64,000 bases of DNA from Chitinophaga pinensis. GTDB taxonomy: Bacteria > Bacteroidota > Bacteroidia > UKL13-3. Below are positions 9,065 to 23,160 of the stretch, in pieces. Location of the stretch: positions 43,565 to 107,564 of the forward strand of contig CAMAWM010000001.1 in the NCBI GenBank assembly GCA_945861965.1. Reading direction: 5' to 3'. The notes under the pieces were generated by a model. The model did no database searches and was not told where the DNA came from. It was given only the letters and a program-made list of their open reading frames with translations. Every line of letters begins with the position of its first letter. Position 1 is the stretch's first letter. Made by a program: the position numbers and the translations under genes.

Positions 9065-12000
9065 ATGAAACAGAATAAACTAATTTCAAATTTTTTTTTC
9101 TTGTTTCTATTCGTAATTTCTTTTCAAACTATAAAAGCACAACGCTGGGGCGATTATACTCTTTACAGCGCGCTTAATAGTACCAGCACCTATTTATTAG
9201 ATACAGCAGGAAATGTATTTAGAACTTACAATACAAATGGTGCGCCAACTGGAGCACAATGTTATTTAATGCCTGGTGGAATTTTGTATCGCGCAGCAAC
9301 AACAAATAATTCATTCAATGGAAGTGGAACTACTGGAAGATTTCAAAGACTTAGTGCTAATGGAACTGTTAATTGGGATGTAACCTATTCGTCAAGCACC
9401 TATTGTGCACACAATGATTTTCATGTAATGCCAAATGGAAATGTTTTAATTATGGCTTATGAATTAAGATCGGCAAGTGAGGTAGTTGCAGCCGGAAGCT
9501 CAGTTAATCACGCAATGTGGATGGAGAGAATTATTGAAGTACAGCCAACTGGAGGAGGAGGAAATATCGTTTGGCAATGGAGTTCGTTTAATCATCTTTC
9601 ACAAAATTACGATTCAACAAAAGCGAATTATTTACCTCTCATTTGGGCGAAACCTGAATTGTTAGATATTAATTTTAATAATAATGCAAATACATCTGAT
9701 TGGTTACATTTTACAGGTATTGATTACAATGCTGAATTGGATCAAATAGTTGTTAGTTCTCAAAATATGAATGAATTTTATGTAATTGATCATAGCACAA
9801 CAACGGCTGTAGCTGCAACACATTCGGGTGGTAATTCGGGAAAAGGAGGAGATATTCTTTACAGATGGGGAAATCCTGCAGCCTATTCAGCAGGCAATAA
9901 CAGCAATCGAATTTTTAATGGAATAAACGATGCACATTGGGTTCCTAAAAATTGTCCAAGAGGAGGATATTTAGTAGGATTTAACAACAATACAACAGCA
10001 ACTGCATCATCCATTGATATGGCAAATCCTCCTTATTTTGGATACAATTATTCATTGAGTGGAATAGCATATTCTCCTTCAACATATAGTTATCGTAGAT
10101 TGTGTAATGGTAAAACAAATTCTTTAGGAATTTCACAACAATTACCCAACGGAAACACATTGATTACAATGTCTAATTTAGGCGTTATTTACGAAATAGA
10201 TTCGAATGGCACCACTGTTTGGTCAAAAACCATAACGGGAGGAACAGGAGTTCCAAATGTTCCACAAGCATTACGTTATGCTGCATGTTATGTAAATGGT
10301 ACTCCAACTATAACAGCAACAACAAACAAACCCTCGATTTGTGCAGGAACAATTGTTAGTTTAGGTGCAAATCCAGCTGGTGGTTCAAATTATACTTACG
10401 CATGGAAATCATCGCCAGCTGGTTTAATTTCAACCTCACAAAATCCAGTAGTGAATCCTACAGTTACTACAACATATACAGTAACTGTTACTAGTGGTTT
10501 ATGTACGGCTTCTTCATCAGTAACAGTTACAGTCATACCTCAACCAGTAGTCAATGTGTTATCAAATCCAACAACTATTTGTTTAGGAACTTCCTCTCAA
10601 TTATCAGCCACCATGTCGGGTACAGGAACCTATACCTATTCATGGGTTGCAACACCAGGGACCTTTACTTCAAACAATCAATATCCTATTGTTTCACCTT
10701 CAGTAAATACAACGTATTTGGTTACAGCAACAGGAACAACAAATGGTTGCACTGATACTGGAATTGCTTTGGTTAATGTTGGTGCAAATCCAGTTGTTAC
10801 TATCAATAATAGCAATCCAACAATATGTGTTGGAAATTCTACTCGCTTAACGGCAACAGCAAGTGGAGGAGGAAATGTTTATACGTATTCATGGACTTCA
10901 TTACCCGTTGGATTTACTTCAACTGCACCCAATCCGTTGGTAACACCAACTGGAACTACTATTTATACAGTCAAAGTTAAAAGCGCTTTATGTACTGATT
11001 CAACTTATCAAAGTATTACTGTTACTGTAAATACGTATCCAACTGTAGTTGGAAGTTCAGATTCAAATAATTTTTGTGCAGGTGGATCAACTCAATTACG
11101 TAGCATAGCAAGTGGAGGAGATTCAACTTATACTTATTCATGGACTTCAAATCCAACAGGATTTACATCAACACTTCAGAATCCAATTGTTACACCAACA
11201 ACAAGCACAATATATATTATTCGAGTTACTAGTGGTGGATGCACATCAGCTCCATATAATGTTGCTGTTACGGTTAAAAGAATTCCTTCATTTAGTATTT
11301 CAACAACAACGCCTACTATTTGTTATGGTGCATCAGCTCAATTAAATATTACAATAGTTGGAGATACACCATTTGTTTATAATTGGTCGTCAAATCCATC
11401 TGGGTTTTCATCAAATTTAAAAAACCCAATAGTATCTCCTTTAGTAAATACAGTTTATTCGGTTTTAGTTACAAGTGGATTAAATTGTTCAGCTACATCA
11501 AGTATTACGATTAATATTAAACCGAGACCAACAGTAACTGCAAGTGCAACTTCAACTCTTATTTGTTCTGGTGGATTAGCAAGATTAAATGCTGAAGTAA
11601 CTGGTGATGCACCTTATACATATTCTTGGACTTCCATACCAGCGGGATTCACTTCTACTATTTCCAATCCATTTGTAAACCCAATTGTAAATACAAGCTA
11701 TAAAGTTGTTGTTACAAGCGGTGGATGTACAGATACAGCTTCAAATACAGTTTCTATTAATTTAATAAATTTGACGGTAAATGCTACAGCAAATAATACG
11801 AATATTTGTCCGGGAACGAGTACATCATTGAATGCTTCGCCAAGTGGTGGTTCAATTTACTCATACAATTGGAGATCTGTTCCACTAGGATTTAATTCTA
11901 CTCAACAAAATCCAAATATCAATCCTGCAATTACAAGAACATATTTTGTTAGAGTAACAAGTGTAGGATGTAGCGATACTGCAACCTCATCTGTTACTGT

Positions 12001-13216
12001 AAATGTCAAATCATTGCCATCTGTTAGTGCATCAGCGAGTAGTAATTCTATTTGTAGTGGATCTTCCTCAACATTAAATGCAACAGTTATTGGCGATACG
12101 CCTTATACCTATTTATGGTATTCAATTCCAGCAGGATTTACATCTAGTATTCAAAATCCAACGGTTACTCCAACAGCAAACACTGTGTACAGAGTTATTG
12201 TAAGAAATGCGGGTTGCAACGATACAGCTGGAGCAAGTATAGCAATAACTGTTACTTCTGCACCAACTGTTACAGCCGTTGTTACTTCTAATATTATTTG
12301 TGCCGGATCATCAACACAATTAAATGCAATACCTAGTGGTGGTAATGGTGGATATTCTTATATTTGGTATTCAAGTCCAGGAGGCTTTACTTCTACACTT
12401 CAAAATCCGACTGTAAGTCCAATGCTTTCTTCTACTTATACGGTTATCGTAACAAGCAATAATTGTACTGGAACTTCAAATGTAAGTGTTACTGTAAATG
12501 CAATTCCATACGTTACAGCAGTATCCGAATTTAATCCGCTTTGTATTGGATCCTCAACACAATTGAATGCGTTATCGCCATTTCAAGATTCAAGCGCTTA
12601 TAGCTACTTGTGGTCGTCTATTCCATCAGGATTTACATCGTCTTTAAAAAGTCCGATTGTTGCACCAAGTATTCCAACAACATACAATGTCATTGTAAAT
12701 AATAATGGATGTGTGGCATCGTCTGGTGTTTATATTACCATTGCTCAATTACCTCCAACCCCAACTATTTCTCAAACTGGCAATATGCTTATATCAAGTG
12801 CAATTAATGGCAATCAATGGTATTTTGGAACTACATTAATTTCAAACGCAACTTCTCAAACCTATTCGCCAAGTATAAATGGAAAATATTCAGTTCAAGT
12901 TACTGATAACAATAAATGCAACTCTCCAATGTCAGCAGAACATCAATTTACCAGTGTTGGCGTCAACGATATTTTGAGTAATAATAATGTGAAAATTTAT
13001 CCCAATCCTAGCAACGGAATTTTGAATATTGAAAGCGATGTTTTGAAAAACACTAACTTCAGTATTGTTGTTTTTGATGCAATGGGAAAATGTGTTTATA
13101 CATTTAAAAATACATCAACAATAAATCTATCTGATTTAAGAGACGGCTTATATTCCGTTACCATTAAGTTAGAAAACGGAAGCACATACAATAAAAATAT
13201 TTTGTTGTATAGATAA
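9065..13216 (+). CDS. Giant secreted T9SS cargo protein: ASST-like beta-propeller N-domain, ten tandem ~80-aa Ig-like repeats and a Por_Secre_tail C-terminal sorting domain
   Basis: Signal peptide ending ...FQTIKAQ. The N-terminal ~400 aa resemble the arylsulfotransferase (ASST) family (HNDFHVMPNGNVLIM, WLHFTGIDYNAELDQIVVSSQNMNEFYVIDHSTT). The C-terminal ~80 aa match the T9SS type-A CTD (KIYPNPSNGILNIE ... DLRDGLYSVTIKLENG). Confidence 0.8.
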   Translation: MKQNKLISNFFFLFLFVISFQTIKAQRWGDYTLYSALNSTSTYLLDTAGNVFRTYNTNGAPTGAQCYLMPGGILYRAATTNNSFNGSGTTGRFQRLSANGTVNWDVTYSSSTYCAHNDFHVMPNGNVLIMAYELRSASEVVAAGSSVNHAMWMERIIEVQPTGGGGNIVWQWSSFNHLSQNYDSTKANYLPLIWAKPELLDINFNNNANTSDWLHFTGIDYNAELDQIVVSSQNMNEFYVIDHSTTTAVAATHSGGNSGKGGDILYRWGNPAAYSAGNNSNRIFNGINDAHWVPKNCPRGGYLVGFNNNTTATASSIDMANPPYFGYNYSLSGIAYSPSTYSYRRLCNGKTNSLGISQQLPNGNTLITMSNLGVIYEIDSNGTTVWSKTITGGTGVPNVPQALRYAACYVNGTPTITATTNKPSICAGTIVSLGANPAGGSNYTYAWKSSPAGLISTSQNPVVNPTVTTTYTVTVTSGLCTASSSVTVTVIPQPVVNVLSNPTTICLGTSSQLSATMSGTGTYTYSWVATPGTFTSNNQYPIVSPSVNTTYLVTATGTTNGCTDTGIALVNVGANPVVTINNSNPTICVGNSTRLTATASGGGNVYTYSWTSLPVGFTSTAPNPLVTPTGTTIYTVKVKSALCTDSTYQSITVTVNTYPTVVGSSDSNNFCAGGSTQLRSIASGGDSTYTYSWTSNPTGFTSTLQNPIVTPTTSTIYIIRVTSGGCTSAPYNVAVTVKRIPSFSISTTTPTICYGASAQLNITIVGDTPFVYNWSSNPSGFSSNLKNPIVSPLVNTVYSVLVTSGLNCSATSSITINIKPRPTVTASATSTLICSGGLARLNAEVTGDAPYTYSWTSIPAGFTSTISNPFVNPIVNTSYKVVVTSGGCTDTASNTVSINLINLTVNATANNTNICPGTSTSLNASPSGGSIYSYNWRSVPLGFNSTQQNPNINPAITRTYFVRVTSVGCSDTATSSVTVNVKSLPSVSASASSNSICSGSSSTLNATVIGDTPYTYLWYSIPAGFTSSIQNPTVTPTANTVYRVIVRNAGCNDTAGASIAITVTSAPTVTAVVTSNIICAGSSTQLNAIPSGGNGGYSYIWYSSPGGFTSTLQNPTVSPMLSSTYTVIVTSNNCTGTSNVSVTVNAIPYVTAVSEFNPLCIGSSTQLNALSPFQDSSAYSYLWSSIPSGFTSSLKSPIVAPSIPTTYNVIVNNNGCVASSGVYITIAQLPPTPTISQTGNMLISSAINGNQWYFGTTLISNATSQTYSPSINGKYSVQVTDNNKCNSPMSAEHQFTSVGVNDILSNNNVKIYPNPSNGILNIESDVLKNTNFSIVVFDAMGKCVYTFKNTSTINLSDLRDGLYSVTIKLENGSTYNKNILLYR
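10300..12760 (+). repeat. Ten tandem in-frame coding repeats (period ~240 nt, about 78-82 aa) inside the adhesin gene
   Basis: Each unit contains ICxGxSxxLxA ... SGG..YTYSW.S.P.GFTS...NP.V.P...T.Y.V.VTS..C; the ICxG motif recurs at 10337, 10577, 10823 and so on. The repeats are diverged at the nucleotide level and resemble SprB/PKD-like beta-sandwich repeats. Confidence 0.8.
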
Positions 13217-15293: not shown

Positions 15294-15902
15294 TTGGCAC
15301 TACCACCAAAAAAACCACCATTTAAAAAACCATCAGGAGGATTCGGAGGCGGAAGACCTTTTTTTCGCAAACCACCTTTAAAACCAGGAGAGGGGGAATT
15401 TAACATAAACCATCAGATTCGCGCAAGAGAGGTGAGATTGGTCGGTGAGGGAGTTGAACCCAAAGTATATACCATTGGTGATGCTTTGAGATTAGCTGAA
15501 GAAGCAGGAGTTGATTTGGTTGAAATATCGCCCAATGCTGATCCACCGGTTTGTAGGGTAGTTGATTATAAAAGATTTTTATACGAGCGTAAAAAGAAAG
15601 CAAAAGAAGCAAAAGCAAATCAGGTTAAGCAAGATATAAAAGAAATTCGTTTTGGACCAAATACTGACGAACATGATTTTGAATTTAAGTTGAAGCATGC
15701 CGAAAACTTTTTAAAAGAAGGACATAAAATTAAAGCCTTTGTTTTTTTTAGAGGTCGTTCAATTGTTTATGCTGAAAGAGGGGAAGTGCTTTTATTACAA
15801 TTTGCTCAAAAGTTAGCAGATTGGGGAAAGGTAGATATGTTGCCAAAATTGGAAGGTAAAAAAATGAATTTAGTAATGAGCCCGAAAGGGAAAAATAAAT
15901 AA
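15294..15902 (+). CDS. infC: Translation initiation factor IF-3
   Basis: IF-3 core ([16 protein letters not shown] ... [19 protein letters not shown] ... [16 protein letters not shown]). The tracked start is a TTG; IF-3 genes commonly use atypical starts. A Gly/Pro/Lys-rich N-terminal extension is present. Confidence 0.85.
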
Positions 15903-15911
15903 GTAAAGAAA

Positions 15912-16112
15912 ATGCCAAAAGTAAAAACAAACAGTTCAGCAAAGAAAAGATTTAAACTTACTCCTAGCGGAAAAATTAAACGCGGTAATGCCTACAAGAG
16001 TCACATTTTGACTAAAAAAACAACCAAGCAAAAACGCAATTTAACGGGAGTATCGTATATTAGTAAACCAGATTCTGGTTTAATAAAAAATTTGTTGGGT
16101 GTTGGAAAATAG
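15912..16112 (+). CDS. rpmI: 50S ribosomal protein L35
   Basis: 66 aa beginning [24 protein letters not shown]. Confidence 0.92.
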
Positions 16113-16240
16113 TTGATTCAGTTCAACTCTAACCTTACTCAATAAAGTTTCGGTTTTAAAATTATAACCCGAACAAAAGCTCATCAAGTGTCAACCAACC
16201 GATTGGCCGCTTAGGTTCAAAAAAAAACAAAAACAAAAAA

Positions 16241-16594
16241 ATGCCACGTTCAGTCAATTCAGTCGCATCGCGCAGGCGCAGAAAAAAACTCCTAAAACTT
16301 GCAAAAGGTTATTGGGGATCGCGAAACAATGTGCTTACAGTTGCTAAGCACGCCATCGACAAAGGTTTGGGATACGCATACCGCGATCGTAAAACCAAAA
16401 AACGCAATTTCCGTTCGCTATGGATTATTCGTATCAATGCAGGTGTGCGCGATTTTGGAATGAGCTATTCGCAGTTTATCGGATTAGCCAATAAAAAAGG
16501 TTTGGGATTAAATCGTAAAGTACTTGCCGACATGGCAATGAACGAACCCGATACCTTTAAATCCATTGTTGAGCAGGTAAAAGCTACAGCATAG
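16241..16594 (+). CDS. rplT: 50S ribosomal protein L20
   Basis: 117 aa beginning [30 protein letters not shown]. Confidence 0.93.
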
Positions 16595-16627
16595 ATATTT
16601 CTATTTTGAACTAAAGAGTTTATTTTA

Positions 16628-16668
16628 AAAACCAAAAACCCGCTTCCAAATAGAAGCGGGTTTTTTTA
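16628..16668 (+). terminator. rplT rho-independent terminator; left copy of a 41-bp direct repeat
   Basis: Stem cccgcttc/gaagcggg, loop caaata, then TTTTTTT. The sequence is aaaaccaaaaacccgcttccaaaTagaagcgggttttttta. Confidence 0.8.
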
Positions 16669-16808
16669 TTTTTGTAGTTTAATTTCCAATTCAAAAAATA
16701 ATCATTTGTTTCAAATTTAATTCCTGTTTTTGCCACAAAGCTTTACCTGCAAACTTTGAAAAAATTGATAACTGCCAACGGAACAGCATGAAATAGCGTT
16801 TAACATTA

Positions 16809-16928
16809 TTATACCCGTAAGGGGCGAAATAAAAATAAATATAATATATTATACCCGAGCGGTACATTATAATGATTTTCGATTATATTTGTACCCGTAA
16901 AGGTATAATACAAAATGAATAGTATTTC
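16809..16928 (+). promoter_or_regulatory. Three operator/promoter-like units upstream of the hipB-like gene, phased 40 bp apart
   Basis: ttatacccgtaagggg at 16809, ttatacccgagcggta at 16849 and ttgtacccgtaaaggta at 16889 are spaced exactly 40 bp apart. Each unit is followed by a tataat-like element and contains partial TACC..GGTA dyads. The ATG of the next gene is at 16915. Confidence 0.45.
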
Positions 16929-17346
16929 AGCATTTATCCGGTATCAGAGAAAAAAACTCGGAATAACTCAAGAGGAACTTGCAGCAAAAGCAGGTGTAGG
17001 TCTTCGCTTTGTTCGGGAGTTGGAACAAGGCAAGGCGACATTACAAATGGACAAAGTTGAACATGTGCTTCATTTGTTCGGATTTCAATTAACACCTAGC
17101 AGACAACGGATTGATCCATATACTATTTTTTGGAATTATTTGAATACGGGTGTAAAAATTAATCTCTCTAACAAGTCAATAAAATATGGAATTATAGTAG
17201 AAGAAATTATTGATCGAAATGAAAATAAAATTAGCGCATGGAAATTTGTTTCAAACAACAATGCAATCAAATACCAGCAAAAGCCCGATGATAAACTAAC
17301 AGAAACAATTATACATGCTGATATAATTGCAATTGAAAATCAGTAA
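16915..17346 (+). CDS. hipB: HipB-like XRE-family HTH regulator with an ~80-aa C-terminal extension
   Basis: N-terminal XRE-type HTH (LGITQEELAAKAGVGLRFVRELEQGKATLQMDKVEHVLHLFG). Its stop overlaps the next gene's start as ATGA. Confidence 0.7.
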   Translation: MNSISAFIRYQRKKLGITQEELAAKAGVGLRFVRELEQGKATLQMDKVEHVLHLFGFQLTPSRQRIDPYTIFWNYLNTGVKINLSNKSIKYGIIVEEIIDRNENKISAWKFVSNNNAIKYQQKPDDKLTETIIHADIIAIENQ

Positions 17347-17681
17347 TGCACTTTAATATGAAACAAGGATTCGTTTATAAAAAAAATAAAATGATCGGAT
17401 TGGTTTGGGAAGACGAAAACGGCTACTCTTTCCAATACAATGAAGACTATTTGCCCAATCCAATTTATGGAGAAGTAAGTAGAACTTTACCATTACGTTC
17501 AGAGGTTTTTACGGATAAAAATATGCTGCCTTTTTTTGACGGATTAATACCCGAAGGGTGGCTATTACAAATTGCCATTGAAAATTGGAAACTCAATCCA
17601 AGTGACAGAATGAGTCTATTATTAACACTTTGCAACGATTGTATTGGCGATGTTTCAATTTTTAAAGACAAGAAAAAATGA
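17346..17681 (+). CDS. hipS: Stand-alone HipA N-terminal-subdomain protein (HipS-like)
   Basis: 111 aa matching the HipA N-terminal 'couple_hipA' region (GLVWEDENGYSFQYNEDYLPNP ... LPFFDGLIPEGWLL). Start and stop are translationally coupled to both neighbours through overlapping ATGA sequences. Confidence 0.7.
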   Translation: MHFNMKQGFVYKKNKMIGLVWEDENGYSFQYNEDYLPNPIYGEVSRTLPLRSEVFTDKNMLPFFDGLIPEGWLLQIAIENWKLNPSDRMSLLLTLCNDCIGDVSIFKDKKK

Positions 17682-18613
17682 AATGCTTACTGTGCTATAA
17701 ACCTTTGGCCAATGATGAAATTGACTACCACTCAAAATGTGTAATCAAAGTTTTTGGTTTGAATCAAATGCCCGAATTTGAATTGGATGAAAATAAATTA
17801 AGCGATTATGCGAAGAGAATGATCTCTGCAAATACAACGATAACAGGCGTTCAGCCAAAACTGAGTTTATGGCTAGAAAACTCAAAAAAAAATACTCGAT
17901 TTACAATTGTTGACAATAAAAGCAACTATATCATTAAGCCGCAAAGTCAAACGTATTTATCGTTGCCAGAAAATGAAGATTTATGTATGCACTTAGCTGA
18001 AGCATTAGGAATTGAGGTGGCTAGACATAGTTTGATTCGACTTAAAAATGGAAAACTTGCTTACGTTACAAAACGATTTGATAGAGAAGCAGAGGATAAA
18101 ATTGCATGTGAAGATTTGTGCCAACTTTCCGAAAGTCTAACAGAACATAAATACAGGGGCAGTTATGAAAAAATAGGTAAAACCATTAGTCAATTTTCAT
18201 CGCAGCCCGGATTAGATGTTTTACATTATTATCAACTGGTTTTGTTTAGTTTTATTATTGGTAATGCAGACATGCACTTGAAAAATTTTTCTATGATTGA
18301 AAAAAAGAATGGAACGTTTTGCTTGAGCCCTGCATACGACTTACTTAGTACACACCTCGTAATAAAAAATGAAACTGAGCAAATGAGTTTAAACTTAAAT
18401 GGAAAGAAAAATAAACTTGCAAAAAGAGACTTCGACATCTTAGGTTCAAGTTTGCAATTGACTGAAAAACAAATTCAGAATTGCTATAAATCTATAATTG
18501 ACAGTTTTGATAAATTTTATTGGTGGATAGACAATTCCTTTCTACATGAACAGCAAAAAGACATTTTGAAAAAGTTGTTTACTAAAAGAATTGATTTGCT
18601 ATTACACAAATAA
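17678..18613 (+). CDS. hipT: HipA C-terminal-domain Ser/Thr kinase toxin lacking N-subdomain 1 (HipT-like)
   Basis: 311 aa. P-loop-like TITGVQPKLS; catalytic motif NADMHLKNFS (DxHxKN); a YDLLST motif equivalent to the Mg-binding DFG of HipA. Confidence 0.75.
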   Translation: MKCLLCYKPLANDEIDYHSKCVIKVFGLNQMPEFELDENKLSDYAKRMISANTTITGVQPKLSLWLENSKKNTRFTIVDNKSNYIIKPQSQTYLSLPENEDLCMHLAEALGIEVARHSLIRLKNGKLAYVTKRFDREAEDKIACEDLCQLSESLTEHKYRGSYEKIGKTISQFSSQPGLDVLHYYQLVLFSFIIGNADMHLKNFSMIEKKNGTFCLSPAYDLLSTHLVIKNETEQMSLNLNGKKNKLAKRDFDILGSSLQLTEKQIQNCYKSIIDSFDKFYWWIDNSFLHEQQKDILKKLFTKRIDLLLHK

Positions 18614-18657
18614 AATCGTTGGCGTGAAGTTAAAATTTACAGATTTGAAATGAAATT

Positions 18658-18698
18658 AAAACCAAAAACCCGCTTCCAAACAGAAGCGGGTTTTTTTA
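18658..18698 (+). terminator. Rho-independent terminator; right copy of the 41-bp direct repeat
   Basis: aaaaccaaaaacccgcttccaaaCagaagcgggttttttta, identical to 16628-16668 at 40 of 41 positions. Confidence 0.8.
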
Positions 18699-18757
18699 TG
18701 AAATTGTATTTTTTTTTTTAAAAAACTATTTAATTGCAGAACTAATTAATAAAAATC

Positions 18758-20074
18758 ATGAAAAACATTTTGCTAATCTTAAGTATTTTACTTTCGCATT
18801 TTGCGCAAGCACAAGTAGGAATTGGTACAAGCTCGCCCAATTCAAAAGCAGTGTTAGATTTAACATCTACCACCAAAGGATTGTTGGTGCCGAGAATGTT
18901 AGCTTCAGAAAAAACGGCCATTTCATCACCAGCAACCGGACTTTTAATTTACCAAACCGATGGCACAGCTGGGTTTTATTATTATACGGGTTCAGCCTTG
19001 ATACTTATTAGTTCCGAACTATTAAGTAAAACAGAAGGAACAAATTTTACAAGCAGTTTATTGGTTGGACATAAAACTGCAAGCGGAATAAGTAATGCAA
19101 ATAATAATACGGGTATTGGTATTGATGCATTAAGTTCGCTAACTACTGGAGATGAAAATGCTGGAGTTGGGTTTACTGCTTTGGGTTCAAATACAGGCGG
19201 AAATTATAATACTGCAAATGGTGCTTACGCGCTTGGTTTAAATACAAATGGGTCTAATAATGTTGCTGTTGGCAACTCTTCACTTTACAATAATGCCACA
19301 AGCGATAATGTTGCAGTTGGTTATAAATCACTTTTTACAAATACATCAGGTTCATCTCATGTTGCAATTGGTGCAAACGCACTTAAGTCAAATACAGTAG
19401 GGTTATATAATACAGCATTGGGCTGCAGTACTTTATATTCAAATACAAATACAGGTTTAAATACCGCTTGTGGTTATAAAGCGTTATTTTTAAGTATGGG
19501 GAATAATAATACTGCACTTGGAGCTGAAGCTGGATATGATATAACAACAGGCTCTAACGTAACATGTATAGGTTATAATGCACAGCCTTCTTCTGCAACC
19601 GTATCAAACCAATTTGTATTAGGTAATTCTTCTGTTACAGATTTAAGATGTGCGGATCAAGTGATTGCTGCTTTATCAGACAGAAGAGATAAAGCAGAAA
19701 TTAAAAATATTACCGAAGGAATTGATTTTGTAAAAAAATTAAATCCAGTAACCTTTACATGGAACACACGCGATAAAGCTAAGGTTGGGATTCCTGATGT
19801 AGGATTTATTGCACAAGAATTATTGGCATTGCAAAACAACTCAAAAATAGGCAAAAATTTAGCTTTGGTTAATGCCAGCAATCCTGAGAGATTGGAAGCA
19901 CAATATGGCAATCTGTTGCCGGTATTGGTAAAAGCAATTCAAGAATTGAGTGCGCAAAATGAGACACAAAAGAAATTGAATGAATTGCAGCAAAAACAAA
20001 TTGAAAGGCAACAAAACGAATTGGCTGAATTGAAAAAAAGTATAAACAATTCGCAAGAAAGTGCTAAGAAATAA
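18758..20074 (+). CDS. Secreted tail-fibre-like protein with a C-terminal intramolecular-chaperone (Peptidase_S74) domain and a coiled-coil tail
   Basis: Signal peptide. The N-terminus (VGIGTSSPNSKAVLDLTSTTKGLLVPRM) is typical of Bacteroidetes tail-fibre-domain proteins. The central region carries degenerate NTA.G/SNT.G repeats, followed by an S74 chaperone-like segment (DRRDKAEIKNITEGIDFVKKLNPVTFTWN) and a Q/E/L coiled coil. Confidence 0.6.
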   Translation: MKNILLILSILLSHFAQAQVGIGTSSPNSKAVLDLTSTTKGLLVPRMLASEKTAISSPATGLLIYQTDGTAGFYYYTGSALILISSELLSKTEGTNFTSSLLVGHKTASGISNANNNTGIGIDALSSLTTGDENAGVGFTALGSNTGGNYNTANGAYALGLNTNGSNNVAVGNSSLYNNATSDNVAVGYKSLFTNTSGSSHVAIGANALKSNTVGLYNTALGCSTLYSNTNTGLNTACGYKALFLSMGNNNTALGAEAGYDITTGSNVTCIGYNAQPSSATVSNQFVLGNSSVTDLRCADQVIAALSDRRDKAEIKNITEGIDFVKKLNPVTFTWNTRDKAKVGIPDVGFIAQELLALQNNSKIGKNLALVNASNPERLEAQYGNLLPVLVKAIQELSAQNETQKKLNELQQKQIERQQNELAELKKSINNSQESAKK

Positions 20075-20088
20075 TCAATAAAAATGCA

Positions 20089-21816
20089 TTAATCAACATT
20101 GTCGTGCAAAAACGAATTGTTGGTTTTCATTTCCGATTTTCCGTTGGCATCTTCAAATAAACTCAAGCGCGATAATTGTTGTTCGCTGCTATGTGGCACC
20201 TCGTCTAATCTTTTGTTTCTGCGTTTGTAAGCGGGTTCTTTTTCCAAATCGCGCAATCCCTGTGGACTGGCTATGGTTATGTTTAGGTTTTTTAATTCTT
20301 TGATGCGCAATATGTGTTTTTCAATTCTTTTATCTTGATCTTCATTTATTGGCTCGCTTGTATTTAAATTAGAAGTTGTTTCTGTAGTGCTATACATAAT
20401 TTGTTGAACATGGCTGCTAATTTCGGTTTCTTTGTTTGATGTCATTCCAAAAGTATCAAATTCCAATTCTTCTGTATTTTCCATTTCTTCTTCTATTTCT
20501 GGAACATCGTTCGGAAAATCATAGATTTCAGTTTCTTCGCTTTCGTCAAATGCTTCGATAGAATTGACAATTTCAGTGCTTTCAACTTCTGCTATTGCTT
20601 CCTCTTCGTTTTGCATAAATTTTAGCAATTCCGAATTCGGATCTATTTCATTATTAACTTCCGAAATAATTTCCAAATCAATGCTTGATTCAGTTTCTAT
20701 TTCCGATTCAACAGTGTCATTGATTACAAATTCAATGTCATCGCTCTCGTTATTTATTTCAGGAATAAATTCAATTTCTTCCATTTTATTTTCAATAGGA
20801 AATTGTTGGAATGAATTTTCAGTAGCACCAATAATAATTTTATTTTCACGAGGTTCAAATCCAGTTGCAATTAAAGTAACAGAAATTGATTTGCCCAAAT
20901 TTTCATCGAAACTTGTACCAAAAATCAATTCAGCAGTTAATCCACTTTCTTGTTGAATATAAGCTGAAATTTGCTCCACTTCTTCCATCAATATTTCATC
21001 AGTTCCTGAAGTGATATTGAGCAAAATATTTTTAGCTCCAGTTATTTGATTGTCGTTTAATAATGGCGAAGCCAATGCTGCTTTTACTGCATTGATTGCT
21101 CTGTTTTCTCCCTGAGCAGTTGCACTTCCCATCAATGCTACTCCACTTGATTTCATTACGGTTTTTACGTCTTCAAAATCTACGTTTATATATCCAGGAT
21201 GAGTAATTATTTCTGCAATGCCTTTTGCAGCGGTTGTTAAAATATTATTGGCGTGTCCAAATGCTTCGCGCAATGCAAGATTGCCAAACATTTCTTTAAT
21301 TTTATCGTTGCTAATAATAAGTAAACAATCAACAGATCTTTTTAAATTTTCGAGCCCTTCATTTGCGTATGATTTTCTGCGTTTGCCTTCAAAATTAAAT
21401 GGTGTGGTTACAATACCAACAGTTAAAATGTCCATTTCTTTTGCAGTTTTAGCAATAATTGGTGCAGCACCAGTTCCGGTTCCGCCACCCATTCCGGCAG
21501 TAATAAAAAGCATTTTGGTATTTACGCCCAACATATCAATGATGTCTTCAATGGCTTCCATTGCAGCTTTTTTGCCAACTTCGGGGTTTGCTCCAGCGCC
21601 TAATCCTTGAGTAAGATTTGCGCCCAATTGTATTTTATTTACAATTGTACTCGCTTCCAATGCTTGTAAATCGGTATTGCAAACAATAAAATCTACACCT
21701 TTAATTCCTTGTTCTTGCATATGATTTACAGCGTTGCATCCGCCACCACCTACGCCAATAACTTTTATAATTGACGATCTTTCTTTAGGCATCATAAATT
21801 TGAAATTTGTTTCCAT
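20089..21816 (-). CDS. ftsZ: Cell division GTPase FtsZ with a long acidic C-terminal linker
   Basis: IKVIGVGGGGCNAVNHM and the tubulin signature GGGTGTGAAP. About 230 aa of D/E-rich low-complexity sequence precede the conserved C-terminal peptide. Confidence 0.95.
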   Translation of the reverse strand: METNFKFMMPKERSSIIKVIGVGGGGCNAVNHMQEQGIKGVDFIVCNTDLQALEASTIVNKIQLGANLTQGLGAGANPEVGKKAAMEAIEDIIDMLGVNTKMLFITAGMGGGTGTGAAPIIAKTAKEMDILTVGIVTTPFNFEGKRRKSYANEGLENLKRSVDCLLIISNDKIKEMFGNLALREAFGHANNILTTAAKGIAEIITHPGYINVDFEDVKTVMKSSGVALMGSATAQGENRAINAVKAALASPLLNDNQITGAKNILLNITSGTDEILMEEVEQISAYIQQESGLTAELIFGTSFDENLGKSISVTLIATGFEPRENKIIIGATENSFQQFPIENKMEEIEFIPEINNESDDIEFVINDTVESEIETESSIDLEIISEVNNEIDPNSELLKFMQNEEEAIAEVESTEIVNSIEAFDESEETEIYDFPNDVPEIEEEMENTEELEFDTFGMTSNKETEISSHVQQIMYSTTETTSNLNTSEPINEDQDKRIEKHILRIKELKNLNITIASPQGLRDLEKEPAYKRRNKRLDEVPHSSEQQLSRLSLFEDANGKSEMKTNNSFLHDNVD

Positions 21817-21849: not shown

Positions 21850-23160
21850 TTAAAAATCTTTCATGTCGTCTTCTTCGTACAACCAATTTTTTCCGCGTTC
21901 GATTAATTTTTTTAGAAAACCATTGCTTCCAACTTTTTCTTTTTGCTTTTCGGTAGATTTCAAGCGTGTTGTATTTTCATCCTCTGAACTTTGAAATCCT
22001 TTCATCACCAAACCAACACCGGTTGCATACATTGGGCTTTTTATTCCTTCGATTTCGCTTTTAGCCAAATGTTCGTTTGCATATCCAATACGCGAATCGA
22101 ATCCAGTTACTAGCTCAACCAACATGCTAAGATGCTTTAGTTGCGAACCGCCACCAGTAATTACAATACCAGCATTTAATTTTTTTTCAATTCCCGAGCT
22201 TTTTATTTCGTATAAAACAGATTCGAAAATCTCAGTAATTCTTGCTTCAATTACATGAGCAAGGTTTGTTACCGAAACTTCTTTTGCTGCACGTCCATGA
22301 AATCCTGGGATGCAAACAATTTCGTTTGAGTTGTTTTGTTCTGCTAATGCAGATCCGTATTTTATTTTAAGTTCTTCAGCTTGAATTTTTAATACTGCAC
22401 AGCCTTCAATTACATCTTCAGTTATTATATTTCCACCGAAAGGAATTACTGCAGTATGCCTAATAATACCATTTTTAAAAATGGCAACATCCGTTGTTCC
22501 ACCGCCAATATCAACTAAGCAAACACCTGCTTCCATTTCTTCTGGAGTAAGTACGGCTTCTGCTGATGAAAGGGGTTCTAAAATTAAATCTGCAATTTCT
22601 AGGTTTGATCTTTTAATGCATTTGTAAATATTTTTTATTGCATCTACGTGTCCAGTTATAATATGAAAATTGCTTGATAATCTAACACCGGTCATTCCAA
22701 TTGGATCGGTAACATCTAACACATCGTCAACCGAAAATTCTTGAGGCAATACATGTATTATTTCATCGCCATGTGGAAGTCGCAAATTGTAGGTGTCTTT
22801 AATCAATGCATCCACATCAGCTTTAGTAATTTCATCTTCTTTGTTGCTCCTGCTAATGCTATTCTTGTGTTGTAAACTTTTAATGTGTTGTCCAGCAATA
22901 CCAACATGAACACTTCCAATTTCAATTCGCATGTTTGCATTTTTGCTCATGCTTTCTTTTGCTTTTGCAATAGCTTCAGTAATGGCTCTTACGGTTTTGT
23001 CAATATTTCGAACTTCGCCTCTAATTACTCCTAAACTTTCGGCTTTACCCATTCCGAGTATTTCAATTTTTCCGTGTTCGGTTTTTGAGCCTACAATGGC
23101 ACATACTTTTGTAGTTCCAATATCTAAACCTACTACTACTTTTAATTCGCCTTGTTGCAT
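21850..23160 (-). CDS. ftsA: Cell division protein FtsA
   Basis: Actin-like ATPase fold (VVGLDIGTTKVCAIVG ... DIGGGTTD). Confidence 0.93.
   Translation of the reverse strand: MQQGELKVVVGLDIGTTKVCAIVGSKTEHGKIEILGMGKAESLGVIRGEVRNIDKTVRAITEAIAKAKESMSKNANMRIEIGSVHVGIAGQHIKSLQHKNSISRSNKEDEITKADVDALIKDTYNLRLPHGDEIIHVLPQEFSVDDVLDVTDPIGMTGVRLSSNFHIITGHVDAIKNIYKCIKRSNLEIADLILEPLSSAEAVLTPEEMEAGVCLVDIGGGTTDVAIFKNGIIRHTAVIPFGGNIITEDVIEGCAVLKIQAEELKIKYGSALAEQNNSNEIVCIPGFHGRAAKEVSVTNLAHVIEARITEIFESVLYEIKSSGIEKKLNAGIVITGGGSQLKHLSMLVELVTGFDSRIGYANEHLAKSEIEGIKSPMYATGVGLVMKGFQSSEDENTTRLKSTEKQKEKVGSNGFLKKLIERGKNWLYEEDDMKDF

Follow-up and report, generated by a model that had tools for sequence, protein, structure and literature searches.

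What kind of system is formed by the three small genes that follow thrS, infC, rpmI and rplT in a chromosome of Chitinophaga pinensis, and how did they come to lie beside ribosomal-protein genes? They were found in a window of 64,000 nucleotides (nt), the whole stretch of DNA analysed here (GenBank assembly GCA_945861965.1, contig CAMAWM010000001.1, positions 43,565 to 107,564 of the forward strand); coordinates below are positions in this window unless a locus is named. We conclude that the locus is very probably a HipBST-type tripartite toxin-antitoxin module of the Legionella-type subclade, chromosomal and strain-variable. A preliminary description of this DNA had made the same family assignment, and gene order, domain content, split-HipA geometry, motifs and best PDB matches all agree with it.

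Gene content and closest relatives

The three genes are co-directional, tightly spaced and located on the plus strand, directly downstream of rplT. The first, hipB (16915-17346), encodes a protein of 143 amino acids (aa), with an XRE-type helix-turn-helix (HTH) domain at aa 1-60 and a conserved C-terminal domain at aa 61-143 (17095-17343). The second, hipS (17358-17681), encodes the predicted antitoxin, 107 aa long from a conserved ATG, or 111 aa if the ATG at 17346 is used. The third, hipT (17678-18613), encodes the predicted toxin, a HipA-type Ser/Thr kinase core of 311 aa without N-subdomain 1. Searches with hidden Markov models, proposed earlier as a check, gave matches for all three families: HTH_3 (8e-9, Pfam) and TIGR03070 couple_hipB (4.6e-23 over aa 3-59, NCBIfam) for the 143-aa protein, Couple_hipA (1.6e-21, Pfam) and TIGR03071 (3e-24, NCBIfam) for the 111-aa protein, and HipA_C (2e-49, aa 54-276, Pfam) for the 311-aa protein.

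The open reading frame (ORF) coordinates confirm the lengths, order and strand reported in the preliminary description, while its two ATGA overlaps were reduced to one. This overlap of 4 nt is at the hipS/hipT junction (17678-17681). At the hipB/hipS junction, the hipB stop (17344-17346) and the ATG at 17346 form TAATG instead. The real hipS start is probably at 17358, 11 nt past the hipB stop, because in an alignment of the window HipS with 78 homologues the M5 position is Met in 65 of the 79 sequences, residues 1-2 are missing from 72, and residues 1-4 from most of the sequences.

All HipBST features that can be tested from sequence were found. HipB is an XRE/Cro-type HTH protein with palindromic operators upstream, HipS a stand-alone homologue, about 100 aa long, of HipA N-subdomain 1, and HipT a HipA_C core lacking this subdomain, in which the Gly-rich loop, the catalytic motif and the Mg-binding Asp (D221) are all preserved. 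On HipA, the alignment of HipS covers residues 7-105, and that of HipT begins at about residue 165-199 and continues from there. The GVQPK, DxHxKN and YD motifs recognised earlier in the kinase are indeed present: G57-V-Q-P-K61, D198-M-H-L-K-N203 and Y220-D221 show little or no variation among 80 relatives, and G57, Q59, K61, N196-A-D198-M-H-L-K-N203 and D221 are invariant in the 80-sequence alignment. In HipS, the motif FFDGLIPEGWL is invariant in 79 of 79 sequences. Canonical HipBA modules, as in Escherichia coli K-12 and Shewanella, have the same kinase fold and catalytic motifs, and likewise combine an HTH-type HipB with similarly built palindromic operators. Unlike here, they are two-gene operons in which HipA is a single polypeptide including N-subdomain 1 and HipB is the antitoxin, whereas in the window, and likewise in its relatives, the subdomain has its own ORF.

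Among solved structures, HipT best matched HipT(Lp) of Legionella pneumophila (8ezr/7vkb; 2e-48, 40% identity over 250 residues), followed by HipT(Ec) of E. coli O127 (7ab3; 3e-16) and HipA (1e-9, aligned only from HipA residue 199). HipS matched HI_0666, a HipS of Haemophilus influenzae (2e-12), HipS(Lp) (2.5e-11, 35% identity) and HipS(Ec) (1.6e-7). The HTH domain of HipB matched HipB(Lp) in 8ezt only (1e-6, 35% identity). For each of the three proteins, the HipBST(Lp) counterpart is thus a closer relative than the HipBST(Ec) one. Systems of the HipBST(Lp) type make up a subclade separate from HipBST(Ec) and occur widely across the FCB (Fibrobacteres, Chlorobi, Bacteroidetes) superphylum, including many Bacteroidota (Lin et al. 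2023, PMC10653801). The H. influenzae pair HI0665/HI0666 provides the best single HipS match (structure 7CZO, 33% identity, including PEGWL), yet it belongs to the gammaproteobacterial E. coli-type clade and is rescued by TrpS (PMC10653801).

The L. pneumophila module (Lpg2368-2370; PDB 7VKB, 8EZR, 8EZT) shares with the window the tripartite order and the 4-nt hipS/hipT overlap. It differs in its HipB, which has 72-76 aa, compared with 143 aa and an extra folded C-terminal domain here, and in the Gly-rich loop of HipT, which reads S-V-Q there and T-I-T here, the latter with two possible phospho-sites. In the HipT of the window, T54-I55-T56 precedes G57; T56 is conserved in 73 of 80 sequences, and position 54 is T or A. 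This is the T[IV][TP] group configuration (PMC10627512), so that dual Ser/Thr positions around an aliphatic residue are a likeness to the E. coli O127:H6 system (PDB 7AB3-5; Bærentsen et al.), and T54 and T56 are likely autophosphorylation sites.

Relatives were collected by a scan with one genome per GTDB species. At least 587 species encode a relative, and 80 species-level loci, mostly from Bacteroidota, were kept. Essentially all of these 80 loci have the order hipB-hipS-hipT, and the split into hipS and hipT, each with a separate start and stop, recurs at 45-77% protein identity. Between the window and three relatives at 66-74% HipT identity, pS, the proportion of synonymous differences, ranges from 0.54 to 0.86 (at or near saturation), while pN, its nonsynonymous counterpart, is 0.08-0.21. 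These values hold for each gene and for either half of HipB, and indicate strong purifying selection on the whole module. Some of the related loci contain, within a few kb of hipBST, another HTH gene that diverges from hipB, or another, distant kinase gene of the HipA-like type: L013 and L014 (5058-5273; 7-222, minus strand), L026 (2716-3765), L052 (290-1405) and L081 (1526-2791). They resemble the layout of HipBA(Bu) beside HipBST mentioned by Lin et al. 2023.

A polymorphic insertion at the rplT terminator

The module had been described as inserted in a ribosomal-protein locus, and its position directly after thrS-infC-rpmI-rplT as unusual for a toxin-antitoxin system. Comparison with other contigs confirms an insertion, as it reveals an empty allele in the same population. 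The module is flanked by a 42-nt direct repeat, of which only two copies occur in the 64 kb, with 0 expected by chance. According to a terminator scan, the repeat is a complete bidirectional intrinsic terminator. The left copy (16628-16669, plus strand) is the rplT terminator, with an A-tract, a 13-bp stem and a T-tract, and folds at -19.3 kcal/mol. The second copy (18658-18699, plus strand) has one mismatch, a T>C change in the loop, serves as hipBST terminator and marks the right insertion boundary. Between them lie 138 nt without recognisable function or relatives (16670-16807), the operators, the three genes, and 44 nt between the hipT stop and the second terminator copy (18614-18657).

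Contigs encoding identical RplT proteins fall into filled alleles (L001-L004, L086, L091) and empty ones. In the empty alleles L085, L087 and L088, rplT and a single terminator copy are directly followed by the sequence that stands after the second copy in the window (gaaattgta…). L089 is probably a further empty allele, judging from its left flank, which aligns directly into the sequence past the second copy. The difference between filled and empty alleles is exactly 2030 bp, composed of the 138 nt, the operators, the three genes, the 44 nt and one terminator copy; the 138 nt are thus absent from the empty alleles. Filled and empty contigs appear to come from one population. Their flanks are 98.5-99% identical, and the filled contigs L002 and L091 share almost the same left-flank haplotype of single-nucleotide polymorphisms as the empty contigs, with 25 differences between L002 and the window in 2868 nt. 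The insert itself is identical in every filled contig covering it (0 differences, up to 2072 nt).

DNA homology to the cassettes of other species extends only from about 16808 to about 18540, and those cassettes, for example in L005, are located in other contexts. Therefore, the presence of the cassette is the derived state and its thrS neighbourhood is incidental. A functional link to thrS was rejected for the same reason, as related cassettes have other neighbours and the site is polymorphic. The left 138 nt are probably a flank carried over from the donor. They had no match outside the same population in the related loci, and an exact 28-mer was not found in the metagenome contigs. With 31.9% GC compared with 33% for the window, the composition of the insert shows no anomaly. 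A comparison with integron gene cassettes (promoterless ORFs followed by an attC site, in arrays next to intI) covered the promoter, the flanking repeat and the neighbouring genes listed below: the insert carries its own promoter and operators, and its flanking repeat, an ordinary intrinsic terminator, also occurs in the empty allele. An Rfam scan of 15800-19000 returned sub-threshold matches over the two terminator hairpins and a weak miRNA-family match at 16086-16153, and no RNA gene.

Predicted regulation, mechanism and role

Upstream of hipB, three operators of the form TATACC-N5-6-GGTATA were read from the sequence, all on the plus strand: O3 (16810-16827, TATACCCGTAAGGGGCGA), a degenerate palindrome; O2 (16850-16866, TATACCCGAGCGGTACA), with similar sites in related loci; and O1 (16890-16907, TGTACCCGTAAAGGTATA), the best-conserved site, which ends 7 nt before the hipB ATG. 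Their start-to-start spacing is exactly 40 nt. A Bacteroidetes-type -7 box, TAtaTTTG (16884-16891, plus strand, TATATTTG), overlaps the first bases of O1. The Bacteroidetes -7 promoter consensus is TAnnTTTG, and the operators of E. coli HipBA read TATCC-N8-GGATA. Sites of the same form, spaced by about 40 nt, occur upstream of hipB in nearly all related loci, where the surrounding DNA is unrelated. Usually there are three copies, with O1 the most symmetrical, and in many relatives "tatatttg" or a close variant adjoins O1. Exact matches to the 24 nt that cover the -7 box and O1 were found in 33 additional metagenome loci, the majority of which carry hipB, hipS and hipT. A sigma-70 promoter scan was uninformative (8 sites compared with 11 expected); the -7 motif was found by eye and by conservation. 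Operator spacing was considered as a correlate of HipB type and rejected, since loci with a short and loci with a long HipB have an identical three-operator layout. A 58-aa ORF on the minus strand (16691-16867) overlaps O2 and O3, lies mostly in the non-homologous left part and is probably spurious.

This layout mirrors the one in L. pneumophila, where there are three evenly spaced operators, of which O1, the best conserved, adjoins the promoter; the gaps between operators are 53 bp there, compared with the 40-nt start-to-start spacing here. HipB(Lp) binds these three sites in electrophoretic mobility shift assays, HipT and HipS-HipT supershift the complex, and both HipB-HipT-DNA and HipB-HipS-HipT-DNA complexes are known (PMC10653801). 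Because the operators of the window match these assayed sites in arrangement, autorepression by HipB is well supported as an inference.

Homology to characterised HipBST systems suggests the following mechanism, including the toxicity of HipT and its neutralisation. Free HipT, a Ser/Thr kinase with HipA fold, would phosphorylate an essential cellular protein, probably one in translation, and thereby arrest growth. HipS, the split-off N-subdomain 1 of HipA, would act as antitoxin. HipB dimers would bind the three operators, repress the operon through the promoter-proximal one, which overlaps the -7 box, and recruit HipS-HipT into a DNA-bound complex. The C-terminal domain of HipB, about 83 aa long, and a probable zinc-binding CCHC knuckle of HipT may modulate this core system. 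The whole 2030-bp unit of promoter, three genes and terminator was gained or lost at the rplT terminator, with the 42-nt duplication marking the junctions.

Four points weigh against this account. First, the target cannot be transferred from known systems. The preliminary description had named an aminoacyl-tRNA synthetase, which is an extrapolation, as neither TrpS nor GltX is the target in the Legionella-type clade (PMC10653801). The toxicity of HipT(Lp), the nearest characterised kinase, is not rescued by TrpS, GltX or PheST (PMC10653801), and therefore such a target cannot be assumed here; nor is TrpS transferable from the much more distant E. coli module (HipT 3e-16, HipS 1.6e-7). Second, the role of HipS W72 is extrapolated from that same distant system. 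E70 and W72 align with E63 and the essential W65 of HipS(Ec), whose system also shares the three-component logic of the module, and W65 wedges under the Gly-rich loop of its kinase (PMC10627512). HipS(Lp), in contrast to the PEGW found here, has Ile/Met at the Trp position, and its neutralisation is independent of this position (PMC10653801).

The third point concerns the N-terminus of HipT, where zinc binding by the CCHC motif is predicted from conservation only. The residues of C3-x2-C6…H18-x2-C21 are conserved in 79-80 of 80 sequences. This CxxC…HxxC motif found no aligned counterpart in the HipT(Lp) chains: a profile built from 22 diverse HipTs matches these chains only from profile position 38-39, and places H18 and C21 opposite Ser and Gly in HipT(Ec), so that HipT(Ec) differs from the Bacteroidota profile at both positions. 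The HipT N-terminus alone gave no HipT match in the PDB, and two published accounts of Legionella HipBST contain no mention of zinc. It is a reasonable inference that the motif forms a zinc-knuckle-like minidomain specific to this branch. Fourth, the C-terminal domain of HipB has no counterpart in any studied HipBST, and HipB may do more than repress. HipB(Ec) is different again: according to Bærentsen et al. (PMC10627512), its N-terminus is disordered and its C-terminus lacks any special residue.

The uncharacterised extension of about 80 aa reported earlier for HipB is real and corresponds to aa 61-143. In 34 homologues with 70-84% identity, these residues are conserved as well as the HTH domain. 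A search with full-length HipB yielded 972 clusters; the best 120 listed are 70-84% identical, and almost all of these are exactly 143 aa long. The named matches among these 120 come from metagenome-assembled genomes of Bacteroidia, Flavobacteriales and Chitinophagaceae, and are annotated merely as "y4mF family" or "helix-turn-helix" regulators. In an exhaustive phmmer search of 1.84 billion representatives, the C-terminal domain alone matched only 33 clusters, nearly all of them proteins of about 145-160 aa in which an HTH precedes the domain, or partial versions of these. Searches of Pfam and NCBIfam gave no family for the domain. Modelled alone, it is predicted with confidence to form five β-strands, a helix, a strand and a helix (predicted local distance difference test score, pLDDT, 82; predicted template modelling score, pTM, 0.69). 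The extension is a folded, conserved domain with a weak resemblance to pleckstrin homology/phosphotyrosine-binding (PH/PTB) folds. The domain is present in only 13 of the 80 species loci, which fall in two HipT clades of a neighbour-joining tree; HipB of the remaining loci has 64-107 aa. Candidate roles are binding of the toxin, as in the layout of a classic type II antitoxin, oligomerisation and the sensing of a signal.

How the module serves its host could be seen differently. Its main role could be phage defence by abortive infection, rather than persistence or addiction, with the kinase released on infection and the HipB C-terminal domain possibly acting as the sensor. This is compatible with a HipBST module, and we regard it as possible, if somewhat unlikely. 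HipT matches the HipA-like components of PDC-M03A, a candidate defence system in PADLOC (1.6e-11), the cassette is an accessory element that varies between strains and lies beside a hypervariable gene with a tail-fibre-like S74 domain, and phage-triggered activation was proposed for other Hip kinases by Gerdes et al. (PMC8262856). However, the PADLOC match covers the shared kinase fold only, and the scan otherwise returned generic HTH matches. Furthermore, the neighbours thrS-infC-rpmI-rplT and ftsZ/ftsA do not form a defence island, and no viral structural match was found for the HipB C-terminal domain.

It is less probable still that HipB uses its extra domain to bind the toxin directly and serves as an antitoxin itself, alongside HipS or in its place. 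The domain is folded, strongly conserved, under purifying selection, almost only found fused to HipB HTH domains, and co-inherited with particular HipT clades; moreover, HipB(Lp) alone already binds HipT (PMC10653801). Against this, HipS keeps every conserved interface motif, including the invariant PEGW, and HipB alone fails to neutralise HipT in both tested HipBST systems (PMC8262856, PMC9325769).

A domesticated, non-toxic regulatory kinase operon that retains only the architecture of a toxin-antitoxin system seems very improbable. It would fit the lack of adjacent mobility genes in all cassette-family members examined and the high conservation of the protein sequences, with 70-84% identity across orders. 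Yet patchy presence and absence in one population, together with varied contexts across species, is typical of selfish toxin-antitoxin cassettes, and both characterised homologous systems are toxic (PMC6581861, PMC10653801). Finally, a single hipA gene broken by a frameshift at 17346-18613, which could account for the joint coverage of the HipA fold by HipS and HipT and for the 4-nt overlap of their ORFs, is practically excluded, because the order and the split are kept in essentially all 80 loci, both ORFs are under strong purifying selection and find their best solved matches in HipS and HipT proteins, and HipT begins with a conserved stretch of about 50 aa, including the CCHC motif, that is its own and was not matched in alignments to HipA chains.

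As a HipBST-type module, the locus belongs to a type that is already known and common in Bacteroidota; it is ordinary apart from the extra HipB domain and adds little to the knowledge of the family. Its relevance lies elsewhere. The module stands for a Bacteroidota branch of the Legionella-type clade that is very large and strongly conserved, and in a tractable Bacteroidota or E. coli expression system the variant could help to find the target of this clade. The extra domain of HipB and the CCHC motif of HipT, which sequence alignment finds without counterpart in the two structurally characterised systems, may reveal added regulation. In addition, the natural presence/absence alleles bounded by a duplicated terminator are a clean case for the movement of small toxin-antitoxin cassettes without mobility genes.

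Flanking repeats, mobility and neighbouring genes

Duplications also flank related cassettes elsewhere. In a survey of 800-nt flanks (blastn-short, E < 1e-3), a direct repeat brackets the cassette in 7 of 59 GTDB loci, compared with 0 of 302 shifted control windows from the same loci (Fisher p = 2e-6). This enrichment is suggestive, the controls not being restricted to intergenic DNA. The repeats in the seven loci are 21-267 nt long. Several are hairpins (L012, L052, L078) and some are not (L025, L046); the L046 unit contains extra sequence between the repeat and hipB. Furthermore, in eight metagenome loci (L092, L093, L098, L104, L109, L110, L111, L121) short-HipB cassettes are bracketed by repeats of 43-468 nt with 90-97% identity. 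In most of these eight, the repeats include, usually at their end, one common terminator hairpin, AAAAGGGCGTTAATTCGAATGGAATTAACGCCCTTTT. In L093, the hairpin AAAAGGGCGTTAATTCGAATGGAATTAACGCCCTTTT occurs in only two copies in 14 kb, 2361 nt apart.

In the window, the empty allele would be restored exactly if the two repeats recombined with each other, and a single crossover between a circle with one terminator copy and the chromosomal terminator would yield the filled allele. A broader proposal, which we consider speculative and unlikely, is that Bacteroidota hipBST cassettes are mobile units without a recombinase of their own, integrating and excising precisely at short host stretches, often terminator hairpins, and leaving a target duplication of variable length (42 nt here, 21-470 nt elsewhere). 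A circular intermediate might integrate by a single crossover, or a structure-specific recombinase might be supplied in trans. If this were true, the rplT site would act as a "cassette dock" that works reversibly. Under the same proposal, the C-terminal domain of HipB could couple a signal to kinase release, as a sensor or adaptor of PH-like type.

Around the cassette, up to a distance of about 5 kb, the named genes are thrS, infC, rpmI, rplT, the S74-domain gene, ftsZ and ftsA. The S74-domain gene (18758-20074), downstream of the cassette, encodes 438 aa with PTL_trimer and Peptidase_S74 intramolecular-chaperone domains and, by eye, a signal-peptide-like N-terminus. It is hypervariable between strains: compared with L085 (5499-6775), 18658-19072 is 84.5% identical, 19072-19664 does not align, and beyond this point identity is back at 98.5%. 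In the empty-site strains the gene is called as two ORFs, of 90 aa and 321 aa, and in L089 there is a third variant, with 90% identity at its 5' end. Next, on the minus strand, a gene at 20089-21816 encodes an FtsZ of 575 aa with a long, acidic, low-complexity C-terminal extension. It is followed by ftsA (21850-23160), and the cassette is thus situated at the edge of a cell-division gene cluster. Upstream of thrS, a protein of 1383 aa (9065-13216) has arylsulfotransferase-like matches, a long repeat run (Ig_7, weak) and a match to Por_Secre_tail, the sorting domain of the type IX secretion system; the protein confirms a Bacteroidota host.

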